Both the position numbers and the translations under genes were made by a program. A DNA stretch of 64,000 nucleotides from Escherichia coli (GTDB lineage Bacteria; Pseudomonadota; Gammaproteobacteria; Enterobacterales; Enterobacteriaceae), in NCBI RefSeq assembly GCF_009931435.1, contig NZ_CP043414.1. One strand, written 5' to 3'. The notes beneath the pieces were generated by a model. That model had not been told where the DNA came from, searched no databases, and saw only the letters and a program-made list of their open reading frames with translations. This document shows, piece by piece, positions 12,344 to 39,510 of this stretch. Numbering within the stretch: the stretch's first letter is position 1; the number at the start of each line of letters is the position of its first letter.

Positions 12344-14452
12344 TCAGTACTCTCTCATATCCGGCGTATCCTGCTTTTCATCAGGGGTCTTCGGTGGGGA
12401 TTTCGAGGCTGCACAGTTCCAGTTAATCAACAGTGAGTCACCATTAACCTGCTCCTTACCCTGCAAATGAATTTTTGTGCCGTTGAGAAAAATTTGTCCG
12501 TCCTTAGTCAGCACCAGCCTTGCCTTACCACAGCAGAGTTCCAGATGCTCACCGGCGGAGTAAATCGCGGTCTGCCCGGTATCATCCTTTTTCGTTTTAC
12601 CAACGGTGAAGGTAACGTTATTTCCGACTTTGACGTCATAACCCAGCCCGACCATCAACGATTTATGCAAACCGATCTGCGAGGACTGCATCAGGGCCAC
12701 CGAGGTGTTCATAATGCCACCTACCGTCGTCTGATACGCCACGCCCACAGTCAGCGCACGAACAAGTCCAATCGTTTCCACCTGAACAGAGCCCACTTTA
12801 ATGATCTGGTTACTGCCCACCGTCTCTATCTGGTTAACGCCCACCGTCTGTATCTGATTGTTGGTAACCGCAATCACCTGATTGTTGCCGATGGTCTCAG
12901 CATGGTTGTTTATCACATCCGTGGTGCGGTTATTCAGCACCTCGGTGTTCATGTTCTTCTGCGCGTGGATGTAGACCTGTTCTTTCCCTGTCGCATCGTC
13001 AAACTTCAGTTCATTAAACCCGCTGCCCTTATAGGTTTTCGAACGAATGGTCATCTGCGTCTTTGTTCCCGGCAGGCTGCCGGGGGTGCGGTTTTCCTGG
13101 TGGTAGGTACGCCCCATAATAATCGGCTGGTCCGGATCGCCGTTGAGGAAGTCCACAATGACCTCCTGACCCACACGCGGTATCGCCAGGTTACCAAACC
13201 CGGTGCCTGCCCACGCCTGTGCCACACGGATCCAGCATGAACTGTCCTGGTTTGACGGGTTATAACGGTCCCAGTTAAATTTCACCCGCACGCGGCCATG
13301 TTCATCACAGAAGATTTCTTCTCCTGCCGGTCCCGTCACGACGGCGCTCTGCGGGCCATCCACCAGCGGTTTCAGCAACGGCTGTGGCCGCCATGTTCTG
13401 TCTGCCGGTATTACCGCAAAGTGGTTATTCAGCGTGGTACCTGAACCCCTGCGTCCCGGCACCGCCTGCGGCTGCTCGCCGTGCAGTTCACTTGCCACCA
13501 CCTGCCATTCCCGGTTCAGGTTCGCCTGCGGATGCCCCGTCAGCGCAATTCGCCGTCCCGGCCATATCTCCGGAGAACGGCTTGTTCCGCGCGCCACTTC
13601 TGCGTTGTTTCGCCAGCCATCCATCTGCCAGCGGGCAAAGTTCTGCCCGTGGGCACCCTTGAAACGTCCGGGGTAGTCATACACTTCATACTGTGTGCGC
13701 TGGTAATCCTGGTACTGGCCTTCCTGATCAAAACGCCCTGCCCAGCCGGGTCGTTTAAAGGTGTAGTCCTTGGTCACCACGGAAGAAGGGCGGATTTGTG
13801 CGCTGTAGCGGAACTGGCTGATGCATAGGGTGCTCACCTCGGTACGGGTGTTCGGATTCCAGGGGATCTCAAAGGACTCCGGCAGATAACGCACGGTGTC
13901 GCACAGGACCAGGCTCTGGTCGGTACTTTTTTGCGCGTGCTCCTCATAAAAGAAGATGCCTTCCTCCGCCGCCATCCGGCACAGGAAATCGTAATCGGTT
14001 TCGCCGTACTGGACACAAAACTCACGGGAAGGATGCGGCTCGCTGAACAGCGGACTCCACTCGGTCACCCCGTTTTCTTTCAGGATCGTCGCGAGTATGC
14101 TTTCGATGTCCTCATTCTGGAAGATACGGAAGTTCTGGCGCAGCCCTGTGCGCCACAGCGGTGGGCACACCTTCATGCTGTACAGCATCTGGTTTTTGTC
14201 GTTCTCCCCCAGTTCAAACCAGGTCACCACACCTTTTACCCGGCGCTGTACGTCATCGCCCTGCCATACCGTCAGGTAGGCCATTTTGTCGAGGATCTGC
14301 GGAAATTCAAGGGAAAGAAACTGCTGACTGACCAGAGAAAGGTCGAGGGAAAAAAGTGAAGAGAGTGACTGGGTGAGATGAAAGGAAACCACCGCAAACG
14401 CGTCCGGTGGCAGGCCGTCCACTTCCAGCGTGAAACGTAATCCGGTTGACAT
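12344..14452 (-). CDS. vgrG: Type VI secretion spike protein VgrG
   Basis: N-terminus MSTGLRFTLEVDGLPPDAFAVVSFHL... is typical of VgrG; gp27/gp5-like middle region and C-terminal repeats (VINNHAETIGNNQVIAVTNNQIQTVGVNQIETVGSNQ); start set at the ATG at 14450-14452 with GGAGG upstream; ends 66 bp before the Rhs start. Confidence 0.9.
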   Translation of the reverse strand: MSTGLRFTLEVDGLPPDAFAVVSFHLTQSLSSLFSLDLSLVSQQFLSLEFPQILDKMAYLTVWQGDDVQRRVKGVVTWFELGENDKNQMLYSMKVCPPLWRTGLRQNFRIFQNEDIESILATILKENGVTEWSPLFSEPHPSREFCVQYGETDYDFLCRMAAEEGIFFYEEHAQKSTDQSLVLCDTVRYLPESFEIPWNPNTRTEVSTLCISQFRYSAQIRPSSVVTKDYTFKRPGWAGRFDQEGQYQDYQRTQYEVYDYPGRFKGAHGQNFARWQMDGWRNNAEVARGTSRSPEIWPGRRIALTGHPQANLNREWQVVASELHGEQPQAVPGRRGSGTTLNNHFAVIPADRTWRPQPLLKPLVDGPQSAVVTGPAGEEIFCDEHGRVRVKFNWDRYNPSNQDSSCWIRVAQAWAGTGFGNLAIPRVGQEVIVDFLNGDPDQPIIMGRTYHQENRTPGSLPGTKTQMTIRSKTYKGSGFNELKFDDATGKEQVYIHAQKNMNTEVLNNRTTDVINNHAETIGNNQVIAVTNNQIQTVGVNQIETVGSNQIIKVGSVQVETIGLVRALTVGVAYQTTVGGIMNTSVALMQSSQIGLHKSLMVGLGYDVKVGNNVTFTVGKTKKDDTGQTAIYSAGEHLELCCGKARLVLTKDGQIFLNGTKIHLQGKEQVNGDSLLINWNCAASKSPPKTPDEKQDTPDMREY

Positions 14453-32835: not shown

Positions 32836-33656
<821 letters not shown>

Positions 33657-33700
33657 GTTGCATACAACGGCAACAGGAAACCGCGCCCTGAGTTTCTCAA

Positions 33701-34012
<312 letters not shown>

Positions 34013-34078
34013 AATGTCACCTGTTTTTGACTATGAGGCGATGATATCACCTCTATTCAGGTGGCCAAATTCAGTGTG

Positions 34079-34265
34079 CCACTACAGTATGGCTAAGATG
34101 GAATCAGAGATTAAATCACTTAAAGCTGATAACGCCGCATTACGAAAGAGTTTAAAACTGATTGATGAGACTAATGCGGTTATGATGGATCATGTATTCC
34201 CTGAGTGGCGAAATGAAACTAAACCTACACAATATAAGAAACCTACACTTCGAGTGGTTGCATAA
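34079..34265 (+). pseudogene. 3' part of the IS-interrupted small gene (coiled-coil tail)
   Basis: The frame continues across the IS: ...GNVYL | RMAKMESEIKSLKADNAALRKSLKLIDETNAVMMDHVFPEWRNETKPTQYKKPTLRVVA*. Confidence 0.45.
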
Positions 34266-34365
34266 AAAAAGGGACTCCGAAGAGTCCCTAGTAAGTTTAG
34301 GTTAGGTTTGCACAACAAAGATGAGGTTATAATGAACATAATGCTACATTATTCTTTAAAGCCAG

Positions 34366-34390
34366 AAAAATAACCGCCCCGAAGGGCGGG
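34366..34390 (-). terminator. Rho-independent terminator-like hairpin (ccgccccgaagggcgg) with a T-run on the minus strand
   Basis: GC stem plus ttatttttct on the minus strand, downstream of the minus-strand small ORFs. Confidence 0.5.
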
Positions 34391-34547
34391 AGGATTAATA
34401 CTCAATCTATACTTGTTATGTTTTTATGTTGTATAGATCACTGACTATGAAAACACTGTACTGGAGTGTGTTTTATGGCTTTTAATCGGGAATCCTCAAA
34501 GAAGATCCCCTGTTAATAACCATAAGGAGAAAAGGCAGATTACACTA

Positions 34548-34721
34548 TTATTTAGCATCCTTTTTACAGCAACTAAAAAGAATAAACAGGATTAAACATC
34601 CCCAGCCGTAAGGTGTACCAATTAGAAATTTGAAAAACACCACCATCGATATAAAAATCAATTTAATGCCAGCGACGATAGTCAAAAACAGCAGAGTAGC
34701 AAAGTAGACAAAAAGATCCAT
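34548..34721 (-). CDS. Small hydrophobic membrane peptide (57 aa)
   Basis: ATG with GAGG 9 nt upstream; MDLFVYFATLLFLTIVAGIKLIFISMVVFFKFLIGTPYGWGCLILFILFSCCKKDAK; below the ORF-track cutoff. Confidence 0.4.
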   Translation of the reverse strand: MDLFVYFATLLFLTIVAGIKLIFISMVVFFKFLIGTPYGWGCLILFILFSCCKKDAK

Positions 34722-34770
34722 AGATAATCCTCTTTGAAAACGACCATCATCTATAGTTCAATTCATCGAT

Positions 34771-34953
34771 TTAATTAATGATACTTGAAAGCGTTACACA
34801 CAGCAGAAATGCCAATATGTGCCATGAATATACGATAGTTAATCCTACAGTAAGACAAATCAAAAATTCAACCATAGGTAAATCCTCAAATAAGAAAAAG
34901 GTTAGCGGGGGGTGATTCCCCCCGTAGACGTTGACCAGCTCAACATCTTTCAT
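34771..34953 (-). CDS. Small hydrophobic peptide (60 aa; internal start would give 34 aa: MVEFLICLTVGLTIVYSWHILAFLLCVTLSSIIN)
   Basis: ORF with a hydrophobic C-terminal segment; the internal ATG has GAGGA upstream. Confidence 0.35.
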   Translation of the reverse strand: MKDVELVNVYGGNHPPLTFFLFEDLPMVEFLICLTVGLTIVYSWHILAFLLCVTLSSIIN

Positions 34954-34973
34954 ACATTTATTTATAACGCGTT

Positions 34974-35540
34974 TTAAGACACATCAAATTCATCGTCTTC
35001 TTCTGGTTCTTGTTCCGGTTCATCCATTAATGGTAATTCTTCTTCCTCGTCTTCTCCCAAATCAGCATTTTCGAACAAGTCCCCTACTTCATTTAAACGA
35101 AGCTCGATGATCTCCCTTAGCTTATTCTTCAATGTTTTCTGATCAGTGGCGGATTCTAAAATTTCTAGGGCATCGATTGTGGCGATCTGCAAGATAGTCT
35201 GCTTCACCTTCCCACAATATTCAGCTAGTTCCTGTTCTACATACCCGACCGGAATCAGGAGATTCATTGCTTCCTGGTTCTCTCGTTCGGCTGCATCTGC
35301 TAATGCTCTCTCACGGCGTAATTTCTCTACGTCGATTTGTTCCTTGATAGAAGTTTCTTTAAGCGGGTTAATGATGTTCTTCAAGACCCAATCACACCCA
35401 GGCTTCGCCGGGACACGTCTTGTATTTGTGTTATAAGGTAGACCCCTTTCTAACCATTTCTTAGCGGCGTTAATTGTATAGCCGTATAAGCGGGAAATTT
35501 CTGTAAGGGTTAATTCTTCTTTCATCCGGTTATCCTCCAT
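34974..35540 (-). CDS. Phage terminase small-subunit (lambda Nu1)-like HTH protein with acidic C-terminal tail
   Basis: 188 aa; N-terminal HTH-like LTLTEISRLYGYTINAAKKWLERGLPY, central EKLRRE coiled-coil segment, C-terminal DEEEELPLMDEPEQEPEEDDEFDVS; resembles the Nu1/TerS layout. Confidence 0.6.
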   Translation of the reverse strand: MEDNRMKEELTLTEISRLYGYTINAAKKWLERGLPYNTNTRRVPAKPGCDWVLKNIINPLKETSIKEQIDVEKLRRERALADAAERENQEAMNLLIPVGYVEQELAEYCGKVKQTILQIATIDALEILESATDQKTLKNKLREIIELRLNEVGDLFENADLGEDEEEELPLMDEPEQEPEEDDEFDVS

Positions 35541-35886
35541 TAAATTTGCGTAAAATTATTTATCTGATCTACGCATTCAGGAGAGCGCCTAAAACGCTTT
35601 CTAACGACATGAAAGATCTAGGCGTGGAAAGGAATTGGCGGGTGTTAATAGTCGCGTAGCGACCGCGCTGGTGGGCTGCACTGCACCTGTTTTGAAATCT
35701 CACACGCACATCAAATACCGGGGTGCCGAAAACTCCCTTTATTTCATCCGCGGAACAGTACCTTTTTAATTTGTCAAGCATTAATTTCTTAATTTAATTA
35801 CTAAATCTCACCCCAATAATTGAAAAAATATCAAAAATCAATAAAGTAAGCATCTAAAAGTCAGTCCATACCAAAAGAGGTATAAA

Positions 35887-36666
35887 ATGAAAAACATTAT
35901 CGCTGCTATCGTGCTTTCTGCTACTGCTTTCGGTGCTGATGCTGCGTCCTTTGATTGCACTAAGGCTATAACCAAATCAGAGAAGTTTATTTGTGCTAAT
36001 GAGTCAATCTCCGCACTGGATTCTAAACTTCATGAAGTATATGTTAAGGCTGTTAAGATTGATCCGTCTCTTAAACAAGAGCAACGCAACTGGAATAAAA
36101 CTGTTCGTGATACAATGATCAATATCGGGCAGATTCAGCCACTGGAGGCTGTATACAACGCTCAAATCCAAAACTTGATGAATGTATTATCTAAAGAAGA
36201 AACCGCGTCAGAGAGCGTTACAGATGATTCTGCAAAGGTTGAAGAAGAACAACCGAAACAGGAAGAAGTAAAGAAACTGAATGTTACCGCGATTTACGCA
36301 TGTACTGCAAAATTTACATGGAAAGTTATCGATGGTGAGGAAACAGAAGCTGTAAAAGATTACTTATACGGAAACAAAGATCATGATGATAAAGGCGGTA
36401 AACTTAAAATCAAACTGGTAGATGATGTTCCTGTGTATTTTGTTTACACCGACAAATATAACGTTTATAAATCACCACTCAAACCAGCTAAAGAAAATCC
36501 AAACGCAATGGAGGGTAAATCCAAACAGGATACTATTGGACGTGTTAACACTTATAACATCTGGGTAAGCAAAAAAGGTGACATGCGTCTTGAAGTTATT
36601 GAACCAAAATATGATTCTGAATATAAACACACTCAATTTGCATGTGACATGGTAGACGCAGAGTAA
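35887..36666 (+). CDS. Secreted protein with N-terminal DUF1311 (LprI-like) domain and unknown C-terminal domain
   Basis: Signal peptide MKNIIAAIVLSATAFGADA; FDCTKAITKSEKFICANESISALDSKLHEVY matches the DUF1311 N-terminal pattern; AT-rich. Confidence 0.65.
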   Translation: MKNIIAAIVLSATAFGADAASFDCTKAITKSEKFICANESISALDSKLHEVYVKAVKIDPSLKQEQRNWNKTVRDTMINIGQIQPLEAVYNAQIQNLMNVLSKEETASESVTDDSAKVEEEQPKQEEVKKLNVTAIYACTAKFTWKVIDGEETEAVKDYLYGNKDHDDKGGKLKIKLVDDVPVYFVYTDKYNVYKSPLKPAKENPNAMEGKSKQDTIGRVNTYNIWVSKKGDMRLEVIEPKYDSEYKHTQFACDMVDAE

Positions 36667-36925
36667 GAGGTGAAATGATGCAATTCAATAGCATGAAGAT
36701 TACTCAAAAATGGTGGGATGCGATGAAAGCTAACCACCAGAACGATATTAATTAAGTAACATTTTAGATATACAGCACCCAGCTAACAGATCACCTTTTA
36801 TGGATTTCATTATAACCCCTTTGATCTGGAAACTATGTTAATTAGTTGATTTCTAAGCCTTGTCCTTGTGATGGGGCTTTTTATTGCAAAATTTTTAGTT
36901 ATTTTGGGTTGACTACATTCGGGTT

Positions 36926-37046
36926 GCCAATTCGCCTGGCTAACTCTTGCTGAGTGATTTCTGACTGTAAAAAAGCATTTAACAGCAATACCTTAGAGGC
37001 GACGCTCAAAGGCACTTCAATAAAGTGATCGTGACTATTTAATGGC
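36926..37046 (-). pseudogene. hicB: hicB antitoxin internal fragment (about codons 59-98)
   Basis: Reverse translation NSHDHFIEVPLSVASKVLLLNAFLQSEITQQELARRIG, then divergence (NPNVVNPK*); stop codons upstream, no N-terminal region. Confidence 0.65.
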
Positions 37047-37226
37047 GAAGTTTACCTCCGTGTGTAATGTGCTCGAAAATAGCACTAAATCGCCGCAACG
37101 GCAGAATGCAATGCAAAATCAGGAAGGAAGATTCCAGAATTTCTTTGCGCTAATTTGCAAAACTGAATAATAACCTCAAGAAACGATCGGCATCATAGCG
37201 GCAAAAGGTCAGAAAAAGGTGGCGGG

Positions 37227-37457
37227 ATGTTTTCGAAGGCGTTATCGGTTGTCTTATTAACGTGTGCACTGTTCTCAGGACAACTCATGGCAGGGCACAA
37301 AGGACATGAATTTATGTGGGTAAAGAATGTGGATCATCAGCTGCGTCATGAAGCGGACAGCGATGAATTGCGTGCCGTGGCGGAAGAGTCGGCGGAAGGT
37401 TTGCGCGAGCATTTTTACTGGCAAAAATCGCGCAAACCAGAAGCAGGACAGCATTGA
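37227..37457 (+). CDS. yncJ: Small secreted protein YncJ (DUF2554)
   Basis: 76-aa ORF with signal peptide MFSKALSVVLLTCALFSGQLMA. Confidence 0.8.
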   Translation: MFSKALSVVLLTCALFSGQLMAGHKGHEFMWVKNVDHQLRHEADSDELRAVAEESAEGLREHFYWQKSRKPEAGQH

Positions 37458-37464
37458 GTCGTAT

Positions 37465-37500
37465 GATGCCGGATGCGGCGTGACGCCTTACCCGGCCAAC
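37465..37500. repeat. REP element (gatgccggatgcggcgtgacgccttacccggcc)
   Basis: Typical REP consensus (gccggatgcggcg...) between convergent yncJ and ydcP. Confidence 0.6.
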
Positions 37501-37548
37501 AAGATCATGCAGACTCAATGAGCTGAGAATAACCTGAAAACCTGCGTT

Positions 37549-39510
37549 TTATCCTTTACGCTTCGGCAATGTTTTTAGCAGCTCATCCGGGCTTACGGAG
37601 GCGACAACACTCCCTGGTAACGGCATTTTAAGAATGTGATTTTTGATTTTGCCAATGACGTGCATCTCACATGGGCGACAATCGAACTTTAGCGTTAATA
37701 CTTCATCGCCATTAACCAGTTGCATTGGCGTCGCCTTCCAGCTTTTGATGTTACCTTTTGCCTGTTTCGGACACAGATTGAAGGCAAAGCGCAGACAATG
37801 CTTGGTGATCATTACCGGCACTTCCCCCTTCTCTTCATGCGCTTCATACGCCGCATCAATCAGTTGCACACCATAGCGATGATAAAATTCACGCGCTTTC
37901 TGGTTGTAAACGTTCGCGAGGAAACTCAAATGCGTTTGCGGATAAACCGGCGCAGGGTCAGCAACCGGTTTACGACTGCCGCGCTGATAACTGGCAAGAC
38001 GTGCAGCATCCAGCATGTCAACGGCTTCACGGCGGAACTGATTTAACAGACTGTTCGGTACAAACAGCGCACCAGGCAGGTTAATTTGCACATCGCGGGC
38101 GTAATAGATGGTTTGCCCCAGCTTAGCCAGACCATCTTTCAGGTTATTAAGCGCTTTTTCGGCGTTATTAGCTTCGTCGAATTGTCCATCCAGCGTATGC
38201 GTGACGCTGACGCCCTCTTCACTGGTCAGGGTCAGAATCAGTTGTTCCTGCCAGCCGCCCAGTTCAATGTCTACCGCTACGCGACGTTCGCTGGATGTTT
38301 TGGTCAACGCCTGCTGCCAGTTATGGTCCAGATTACGATTAAGCGGATGATGCGGACGAATTTTATGCAAATCCGCAGGCATCTCATTTGGCCAGACGCG
38401 GTACTGATTTTGCCCGGTTTTTTCGACTGTATTGGCGCGAAAGCCAACCACTTCACGTTTAATCATCACATTCAGACCATCGCCATTTGCTAACGGCTCG
38501 GTGACGGCAACATCAATATGATCTTTCGCTACTTTCAATACTTCGCCCACCGGCAGGCCAATGAATTTCGGTGAATCGAACGCGCCAATATCGCCTTTAC
38601 GCGCGTTAACAAAGTAGTCTGTGCTGCCTCGGTGGAAAGTCTTTTCCGTCGACGGGACAAAGAAATGTTCAGTACGACCTGATGACGCACGCGCCAGATC
38701 GCCACGTTCTTCAATAATGGCATCCAGCATCTGGCGATAATGTGCGGTGATATTCTTCACGTAACTCATATCTTTGTAACGCCCTTCAATCTTGAAGGAG
38801 CGCACGCCAGCATCAATCAGCGCGCCGAGGTTGGCAGTCTGATCGTTATCTTTCATCGACAGCAGATGTTTTTCATAGGAAACCACCCGCCCCTGATCGT
38901 CTTTCAATGTGTATGGCAAACGGCACGCCTGCGAGCAATCGCCACGGTTGGCGCTACGCCCTGTTTGCGCATGAGAAATGTAGCACTGACCCGAATAGGC
39001 CACGCACAATGCACCATGAATAAAGAATTCAATGGTCGCGTCCGTGGCCTGGTGAATCGCGCGGATCTGCTCAAGATTCAGCTCTCGCGCCAGCACAATC
39101 TGCGTAAAGCCAACATCAGAGAGGAACTTCGCTTTTTCTACTGTGCGAATATCGCACTGCGTACTGGCGTGCAGTTCAATCGGCGGAATATCAAGTTCCA
39201 GAATCCCCATATCCTGAACAATCAGCGCATCGACGCCGGTCTGGTAGAGGTCGGTAATCAGCCGTTGCGCAGGTTCCAGCTCATCATCATGCAAAATGGT
39301 GTTAAGCGTGACGAAAATTTTTGCACCATAACGATGGGCAAACGGCACCAGTTCGGCAATATCTTTCAGGCTATTACTGGCATTATGACGGGCACCAAAA
39401 CCAGGGCCGCCGATATAAACAGCATCGGCACCGTGCAAAATAGCTTCGCGGGCAATGGCGGCATCGCGTGCCGGGCTTAACAGTTCAAGTCGATGAGAAG
39501 ATACGGTCAC
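37549..39510 (-). CDS. ydcP: Peptidase U32-family protein (23S rRNA hydroxycytidine synthase RlhA / YdcP)
   Basis: U32 signature region; the ORF track starts at a GTG at 39552 (667 aa); the GTG at 39510 gives the 653 aa recalled for K-12; start uncertain. Confidence 0.85.
   Translation of the reverse strand: MTVSSHRLELLSPARDAAIAREAILHGADAVYIGGPGFGARHNASNSLKDIAELVPFAHRYGAKIFVTLNTILHDDELEPAQRLITDLYQTGVDALIVQDMGILELDIPPIELHASTQCDIRTVEKAKFLSDVGFTQIVLARELNLEQIRAIHQATDATIEFFIHGALCVAYSGQCYISHAQTGRSANRGDCSQACRLPYTLKDDQGRVVSYEKHLLSMKDNDQTANLGALIDAGVRSFKIEGRYKDMSYVKNITAHYRQMLDAIIEERGDLARASSGRTEHFFVPSTEKTFHRGSTDYFVNARKGDIGAFDSPKFIGLPVGEVLKVAKDHIDVAVTEPLANGDGLNVMIKREVVGFRANTVEKTGQNQYRVWPNEMPADLHKIRPHHPLNRNLDHNWQQALTKTSSERRVAVDIELGGWQEQLILTLTSEEGVSVTHTLDGQFDEANNAEKALNNLKDGLAKLGQTIYYARDVQINLPGALFVPNSLLNQFRREAVDMLDAARLASYQRGSRKPVADPAPVYPQTHLSFLANVYNQKAREFYHRYGVQLIDAAYEAHEEKGEVPVMITKHCLRFAFNLCPKQAKGNIKSWKATPMQLVNGDEVLTLKFDCRPCEMHVIGKIKNHILKMPLPGSVVASVSPDELLKTLPKRKG

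Follow-up and report, generated by a model that had tools for sequence, protein, structure and literature searches.

The window, by which is meant the whole 64,000-nt stretch of DNA that was analysed, is Escherichia coli chromosome and shows 99.9% identity over 1301 bases to strain 2020CK-00188, hereafter the twin genome. In the twin genome, the two small open reading frames (ORFs) considered here are flanked by two hicB fragments, and the interval between the fragments holds a frameshifted IS3 transposase, an unannotated stretch with the two ORFs, a "hypothetical protein" that corresponds to a terS-like gene, and a divergent LprI-family gene. In the window, this region is a prophage relic of ~4.3 kb that interrupts the hicB antitoxin gene and has been cut short by a frameshifted element of the IS3 family. 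The upstream small gene is called S and the downstream one L, and the features of the locus are as follows.

34974–35540, minus strand: terS-like gene, 188 aa by ORF listing and 183 aa by PGAP; first gene of the transcription unit.
34926–34948, minus strand: leader hairpin 1, with a 9-bp stem formed by AGAUGUUGA and UCAACGUCU.
34906–34924, minus strand: leader hairpin 2 (the G6/C6 palindrome), with a 7-bp stem and a 5-nt loop.
34876–34953, minus strand: 5' extension that makes a 60-aa ORF; without an SD and outside the gene.
34771–34875, minus strand: S gene, a frameshifted relic copy of 34 aa as read, with a family form of 33 aa; SD GAGGA at 34887–34883.
34548–34721, minus strand: L gene, 57 aa, intact; SD GAGGA at 34732–34728; C-terminus KKDAK.
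34488–34510, minus strand: 3'-UTR hairpin, GGGGAUC...GAUUCCC, read from the sequence.
34364–34389, minus strand: intrinsic terminator 1, with its stem at 34389–34374, six G-C pairs, a TTCG loop and a TTATTTTTCT tail.
34260–34289, minus strand: intrinsic terminator 2 (tandem), with its stem at 34289–34270, 8 bp, a TTCG loop and a T7 tail.
32836–34012 and about 36900–37030: hicB insertion and IS3 boundaries of the relic.

The terS-like product matches the terminase small subunit family phrog_57 (E 4.4e-13), and its homologues, some of which bear the NCBI name terminase small subunit, share 43–79% identity with it in Salmonella, Proteus, and other contigs. Together with the terminator stem at 34389–34374, this match bears out the placement of the two ORFs between a TerS-like gene and a minus-strand terminator in the initial annotation. 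Upstream of terS, the minus strand of 35541–35886 is a gene-free leader of about 350 nt. It includes several GC-rich blocks that are conserved, an inverted repeat (TGCGTA...TACGCA) directly before the terS SD, and a CTTGACA element that nearly every aligned relative shares, though not Proteus. No matching −10 element was found for the CTTGACA element, and the leader may act as a promoter region, as an operator, or as a cos site. The divergent LprI-family gene next to it (35887–36666, plus strand) encodes a lysozyme-inhibitor-like protein of 259 aa (phrog_14799, E 4e-109; Pfam LprI, 23 bits) and fills a second variable slot upstream of terS, which is occupied by a 101-aa hypothetical gene in other copies.

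In other E. coli genomes, the 1.3 kb containing the S/L cassette forms one end of a complete prophage of ~35 kb, with insertion sites in ycdX, codB, or hicB. The gene order of this prophage starts with the terS-like gene and a small gene, followed by three convergent genes, and continues with Rha, a gpA-type TerL, portal, capsid, and genes annotated as tail tube, tail fiber, and tail tip, while an HNH endonuclease, an M15 endolysin, and a large serine recombinase are located at the far end. The family was detected in 63 of 5426 complete E. coli genomes (about 1%) and is also present in Salmonella and Proteus. Among 50,697 phage records there was no DNA or TerS match to a cultured phage, the closest TerL among cultured phages being 44% identical; no plasmid match was obtained, and the prophage family was not found described in literature searches. 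The cassette belongs to an uncharacterised family of temperate tailed prophages of ~35 kb with a large serine recombinase, and the copy in the window is part of a decaying prophage relic. An independent relic, bounded by ISKpn26 and with an intact S gene, occupies the same hicB site in strain EC05. The S+L cassette is also carried by E. coli 06-00048 (CP015229), in a prophage copy of only about 23 kb that IS3 has disrupted, and by strain H2 (CP028733), whose prophage may be complete. In addition, ISApl1 has inserted into the cassette region in two Chinese E. coli strains (CP041628 and CP044443, copies L013 and L040); the insertion in HeN100 carries mcr-1.1, and that in PE15 truncates L at codon 48. 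The full prophage in CP122620 (L038) contains 1.3 kb without an annotated gene (37090–38363) between the convergent and the Rha-side genes, and no obvious repressor or replication genes are annotated in the element. Between its tail-tip and minor-tail genes (12390–12857) lie two small proteins of 92 and 56 aa without an informative PHROG match, the larger of which has an N-terminal hydrophobic segment and a coiled-coil-looking region; these two are further candidates for the role of holin, spanin, or exclusion protein.

A total of 27 cassette copies were gathered from E. coli genomes and IMG/VR contigs. S comprises 33 codons in 25 of them, the remaining two being the window and the twin genome (L001), and its SD GAGGA lies 7 nt before the ATG at 34875. 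In the window copy, one nucleotide is missing between 34825 and 34824, after codon 17, and everything downstream is altered; the other 25 copies have one extra base at this point, and their 33-aa product differs in its C-terminal half. Independent assemblies share the deletion, which is therefore not a sequencing error. The ORF at 34771–34953 (minus strand) reads through 60 aa and gives 34 aa from its internal ATG, hence the 34–60 aa of the initial annotation, of which the SD and coordinates of the shorter form stood, while the 34 aa proved to be a frameshift variant and the 60-aa form to have no SD. In most copies the 60-aa frame is broken by a 2-nt indel at 34939–34938 and by substitutions; among the sampled copies it is open only in the window, in L002, and in L078, and in the last from a different ATG, giving 56 aa. 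A bacteriocin-like match in NCBIfam (E 0.089) falls in this non-conserved extension.

Homologues of S with 33 aa and an SD were identified in three diverged Salmonella loci, and the family carries the motifs M-x-[DE]-F-L-I-Y-L at the N-terminus and [HY]-I-x-I-x3-C at the C-terminus. The E. coli S consensus, which has a GRAVY of 1.21 and hydrophobic residues from 4 to 23, scored 33.1 bits against a Salmonella-only profile, a value reached by none of 5000 shuffles (best 16.5 bits), while the window copy scored 13.3 bits. All ten pairwise dN/dS values of S are below 1 (0.20–0.66). By this conservation, S is a protein family, and the window copy, which keeps codons 1–17 and falls outside the family definition of 33 codons and both motifs, is a broken member of it.

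L has 57 codons in 26 of the 27 copies, with no indels, the exception being cut by ISApl1, and its SD GAGGA lies 6 nt before the ATG. Its GRAVY is 1.54, and the AlphaFold (AF2) model predicts two helices, at residues 3–35 and 37–55, with a mean pLDDT of 84; the coordinates and SD first assigned to the 57-aa ORF hold, but the model does not show the single membrane helix proposed for it. The charged tail, KKDAK or KKDTK, is only five residues long, whereas the L proteins of Salmonella end with 6–12 charged residues (GKDDEKKCNK, RDMFKKKDTK). The similarity between L and the Salmonella L-like proteins of 55–60 aa is weak (6.6 bits, shuffle p = 0.007). A word-indexed search with L returned only E. 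coli proteins with 88–93% identity, and an exhaustive HMMER search of 1.8 billion representatives recovered only L's own cluster. The L of the window bears three lineage-specific amino-acid changes, and the ratio of three nonsynonymous to two synonymous changes in its lineage is as expected for drift.

The alleles of the locus switch exactly between about 34896 and 34555. In sister phages with flanks of about 81–99% identity, the S+L cassette is replaced by a PGAP-annotated 94-aa gene, a type that comprises three subtypes of 92–95 aa with three hydrophobic segments. In Proteus and in the relative L072, the slot contains proteins of 74–76 aa with two hydrophobic segments, and in the relative L077 a lone S-like ORF of 32 aa. 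In Salmonella prophages with TerS proteins of 69–79% identity, an L-like gene of 55–60 aa precedes one of 33 aa, and both have an SD; this order is the reverse of that in E. coli. Small hydrophobic ORFs (GRAVY 0.9–1.8) fill the slot in all relatives that could be read clearly, Proteus among them, to a TerS identity as low as 49%; the slot is ambiguous in L073, at 43% TerS identity, and no empty slot was found among about 12 distinct relatives. The GC content of the slot genes is 31–35%, versus 42–45% in terS, a difference that the codons for hydrophobic residues alone could explain.

It might be argued that the ORFs are not genes at all, but either frames left open by chance in a T-rich 3' UTR or remnants of a 94-aa gene, like that of sister phages, which has broken in two. 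The region is AT-rich, PGAP annotates neither S nor L in any RefSeq genome examined, and the 328-nt allele A sits in the same place as the single 285-nt gene, with the last codons and the stop common to both. However, the substitution pattern is frame-specific. Nine of the 14 variable sites in S are synonymous (p = 0.001), as are 12 of the 27 in L (22% expected, p = 0.007; 15 lie at codon position 3), although both binomial p-values are optimistic, with linked sites treated as independent and an E. coli divergence of only 5–8%. Indels are common in the flanks, and within the ORFs none occurs except the S deletion of the window; the two alternative frames of both genes acquire stop codons, and the SDs are conserved. 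The origin of S+L as a split 92–95 aa gene was rejected: BLASTP gave no alignment between them, Smith-Waterman shuffle p-values ranged from 0.04 to 0.5, and the HMM of the 92–95 aa family scored S and L no better than shuffles. S is exactly 33 codons long in both E. coli and Salmonella, and this conservation, combined with the reversed order of S and L, is incompatible with halves of one gene. The non-gene reading is largely refuted and retains a very small probability. On comparative grounds, S and L are genuine genes for predicted small hydrophobic membrane proteins. The initial annotation had named the lack of a translation signal and of conserved frames as what would count against its proposal; the conserved SDs, the synonymous and third-position excess, and the cross-genus 33-aa homologues all speak the other way. 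Searches of Pfam, PHROGs, NCBIfam, and PADLOC yielded nothing for S, L, or the alternative slot proteins.

From Salmonella to Proteus and L072, the sequence after terS follows a common layout, in which TA(T/C)(A/T)AAATA, hairpin 1, and a G/C hairpin precede an SD located 20–60 nt further on; the most distant relative, L073, has no obvious counterpart. All relatives, Proteus included, conserve the TA(T/C)(A/T)AAATA motif (34955–34972 in the window) 5–25 nt past the stop codon of terS. The motif is −10-like, without a consistently spaced −35, and may represent a weak promoter or a site of RNase processing. Hairpin 1 appears in both the MFE and the centroid fold (region z-score −2.95), its pair A46-T28 is replaced by G-C in L004, and a hairpin at its position is visible by eye in most relatives, including Salmonella. 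Hairpin 2 is found in both cassette alleles and in the Salmonella, Proteus, and L072 relatives. In its stem, 34918 G>A is compensated by 34912 C>T, turning G-C into A-T, and four different loops are carried on the same stem. It was not called as a terminator, the T-run beginning 7 nt past the stem. The palindrome that the initial annotation had placed inside the second ORF is indeed present at 34923–34907, but its place is in the leader, ahead of the conserved start codon, and its covariation indicates that it is a selected RNA structure rather than coding sequence.

A scan of the terS–S interval found no sigma-70-like minus-strand promoter and no intrinsic terminator, from which we infer that S and L are co-transcribed with terS. 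At the other end of the unit, terminator 1 is conserved between E. coli and Salmonella, its loop and stem variants preserving the pairing, and terminator 2 is conserved in the Salmonella loci; six terminator-like sites occur in the region, versus 1.3 expected from shuffles. The ~160-nt 3' UTR between L and terminator 1 (34390–34547, minus strand) contains the 3'-UTR hairpin and a block, GTTTTCATAGTC, common to the Salmonella loci. The pairing of this hairpin is kept in the alternative allele (GGGAA...UUCCC), and it aligns with a longer hairpin in Salmonella. This 3' UTR could yield a 3'-UTR-derived small RNA. A third copy of TTTGAGGATT after L was considered as a vestigial S gene and rejected, the Salmonella alignment showing it to be an arm of the 3'-UTR hairpin. 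No Rfam match at E ≤ 1 was obtained on 34000–36000.

The best explanation of the locus, to which we assign a probability of about 0.6, is that S and L are two genuine inner-membrane protein genes of an uncharacterised prophage family, residing in a variable slot linked to terS, and that the window holds a relic of them. S, of 33 aa in the family with one helix, and L, of 57 aa with two helices, are predicted to be small inner-membrane proteins. Transcription together with terS would place their expression in the lytic cycle, and each protein would be translated from its own strong SD and inserted in the inner membrane. Among nearly identical phages, the slot content is swapped between S+L, L+S, a single 92–95 aa gene, and a 74–76 aa gene, and in this genome the phage has been reduced to the ~4.3 kb left within hicB adjoining IS3. 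As for the function, a membrane role in the lytic cycle ranks first, though below even odds, and most probably concerns lysis control, with L as a holin-type protein and S as its partner or modulator. A superinfection-exclusion role, or another accessory membrane role, is ranked close behind it, and some other membrane role of undefined nature comes third, at slightly lower odds again.

In its most specific form, which we rate below even odds, the lysis proposal takes the slot to be the hypervariable small-membrane-protein locus of the family and, at the same time, its missing holin system, in which L would be the hole-former and S the partner or antiholin. The prophage encodes an M15 endolysin (phrog_894, E 4.5e-45), and no recognisable holin was found among its genes. 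The slot is always occupied, the sizes and the two to three membrane segments suggested by hydropathy are holin-like, and expression probably accompanies that of terS. The holin gene 17.5 of T7 adjoins the terS gene 18. The endolysin gene lies at the recombinase end, about 31 kb from the cassette in the prophage and about 3.5 kb across attP in the circular form; the locus would be parted from the endolysin by the cos/att junction, and the cassette would be exchanged with its 92–95 aa and 74–76 aa alternatives. Nevertheless, S and L are not beside the endolysin, the C-terminal tail of about five residues is short, there is no dual start, and the two other small proteins among the tail genes (92 and 56 aa), with a hydrophobic N-terminal segment, compete for the role. 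Holin families gave no meaningful match in Pfam, NCBIfam, or PHROG, the only one being an insignificant match of a Salmonella L protein to phrog_1350 at E 0.75. An accessory (moron-like) gene would account equally well for the low GC, the allele swapping, and the location next to the attachment site and to another variable gene. The holin-like nature suggested in the initial annotation remains a live possibility, tentative as it is, but the label is not established.

Under the accessory alternative, S and L would be moron-type membrane proteins of the prophage that block the DNA entry of other phages or modify the envelope. Non-homologous cassettes are exchanged between phages whose flanks are 92–97% identical, the GC content of the cassette is below that of terS, the unit has its own tandem terminators, and it is located at the prophage edge beside the second variable gene (LprI-like or 101-aa hypothetical). 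The cassette has also been kept in two different hicB relics, one adjoining IS3 and the other ISKpn26. A precedent is the moron-encoded gp15 of HK97, a small inner-membrane exclusion protein (PMC3594210). On the other hand, the terS–S interval yielded no promoter, and hairpin 2 is followed after only about 30 nt by the SD. The slot was never empty in the relatives examined, its content being replaced and not added, in contrast to the definition of morons as "more DNA" (PMC3594210). S is broken in the window relic, the changes in the window lineage of L are those given above, and no PADLOC match was found. In our view, an accessory function is possible, though below even odds.

The initial annotation had also suggested type I toxin-like peptides. 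It is far less probable that the locus is a type I toxin-antitoxin system, with one or two membrane-depolarising peptides whose mRNA an antisense RNA would repress. Prophages often carry type I toxin loci, both peptides (33–34 and 57 aa) are shorter than 60 aa and very hydrophobic with a basic C-terminus, and two weak plus-strand promoter-like sites overlap the ORFs (34630–34658 and 34931–34958). However, the region has four promoter-like sites where chance alone would give 5.9, and no terminator follows the antisense ones, none having been found on the plus strand of 34390–34975. The search for an antisense RNA gene yielded only these two sites, each matching 9 of 12 positions, in a consensus scan that could miss a weak promoter. 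The Rfam search gave no match, and neither Pfam nor NCBIfam linked the peptides to the toxin families Hok, Ldr, Ibs, ShoB, TisB, DinQ, or ZorO. Each ORF lies downstream of terS, is oriented like it, and has a strong SD at the usual distance, while hok- or ldr-type mRNAs have long structured leaders. In sister phages, moreover, the slot holds proteins of 92–95 aa with three hydrophobic segments.

Small membrane proteins of phages include holins, exclusion proteins, and toxins, and they are routinely overlooked. For this prophage family, two orphan protein families, S and L, and a positionally conserved, sequence-swapping locus are newly defined here, and S and L are concrete candidates for the holin of the family or for an exclusion function. 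The copy in the window is a decaying relic with no obvious consequence for the host.

Several known systems invite comparison with S and L as small inner-membrane proteins. The E. coli chromosomal proteins YncL and OrtT, encoded elsewhere in the same chromosomal neighbourhood of the twin genome, are of the same size class, hydrophobic, and often missed by standard annotation, but they are unrelated in sequence, and S and L are carried by prophages of a single family only. Type I toxins (Hok/Gef, Ldr, Ibs, ShoB, TisB, ZorO) are likewise hydrophobic, shorter than 60 aa, often prophage-borne, and sometimes arranged in tandem; they differ from the present locus, which has no antisense RNA gene or family match and is apparently co-transcribed with terS. 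HK97 gp15, a small inner-membrane superinfection exclusion protein, is encoded by a moron that has its own promoter and was added inside the tail operon (PMC3594210). Like S and L, it forms a self-terminated unit with a GC content below that of its neighbours and varies between related phages (PMC3594210), whereas it shares no sequence similarity with them (no Pfam or PHROG match), no promoter was found here, and the slot is always filled. Holins such as lambda S105 (class I), phage 21 S68 (class II), and T7 gp17.5 differ from S and L, which do not adjoin the endolysin gene and have a very short C-terminal tail and no dual-start motif, but they resemble them in being small, with one to three hydrophobic segments and a basic C-terminus, and share with the slot proteins an extreme sequence diversity accompanied by mosaic exchange.
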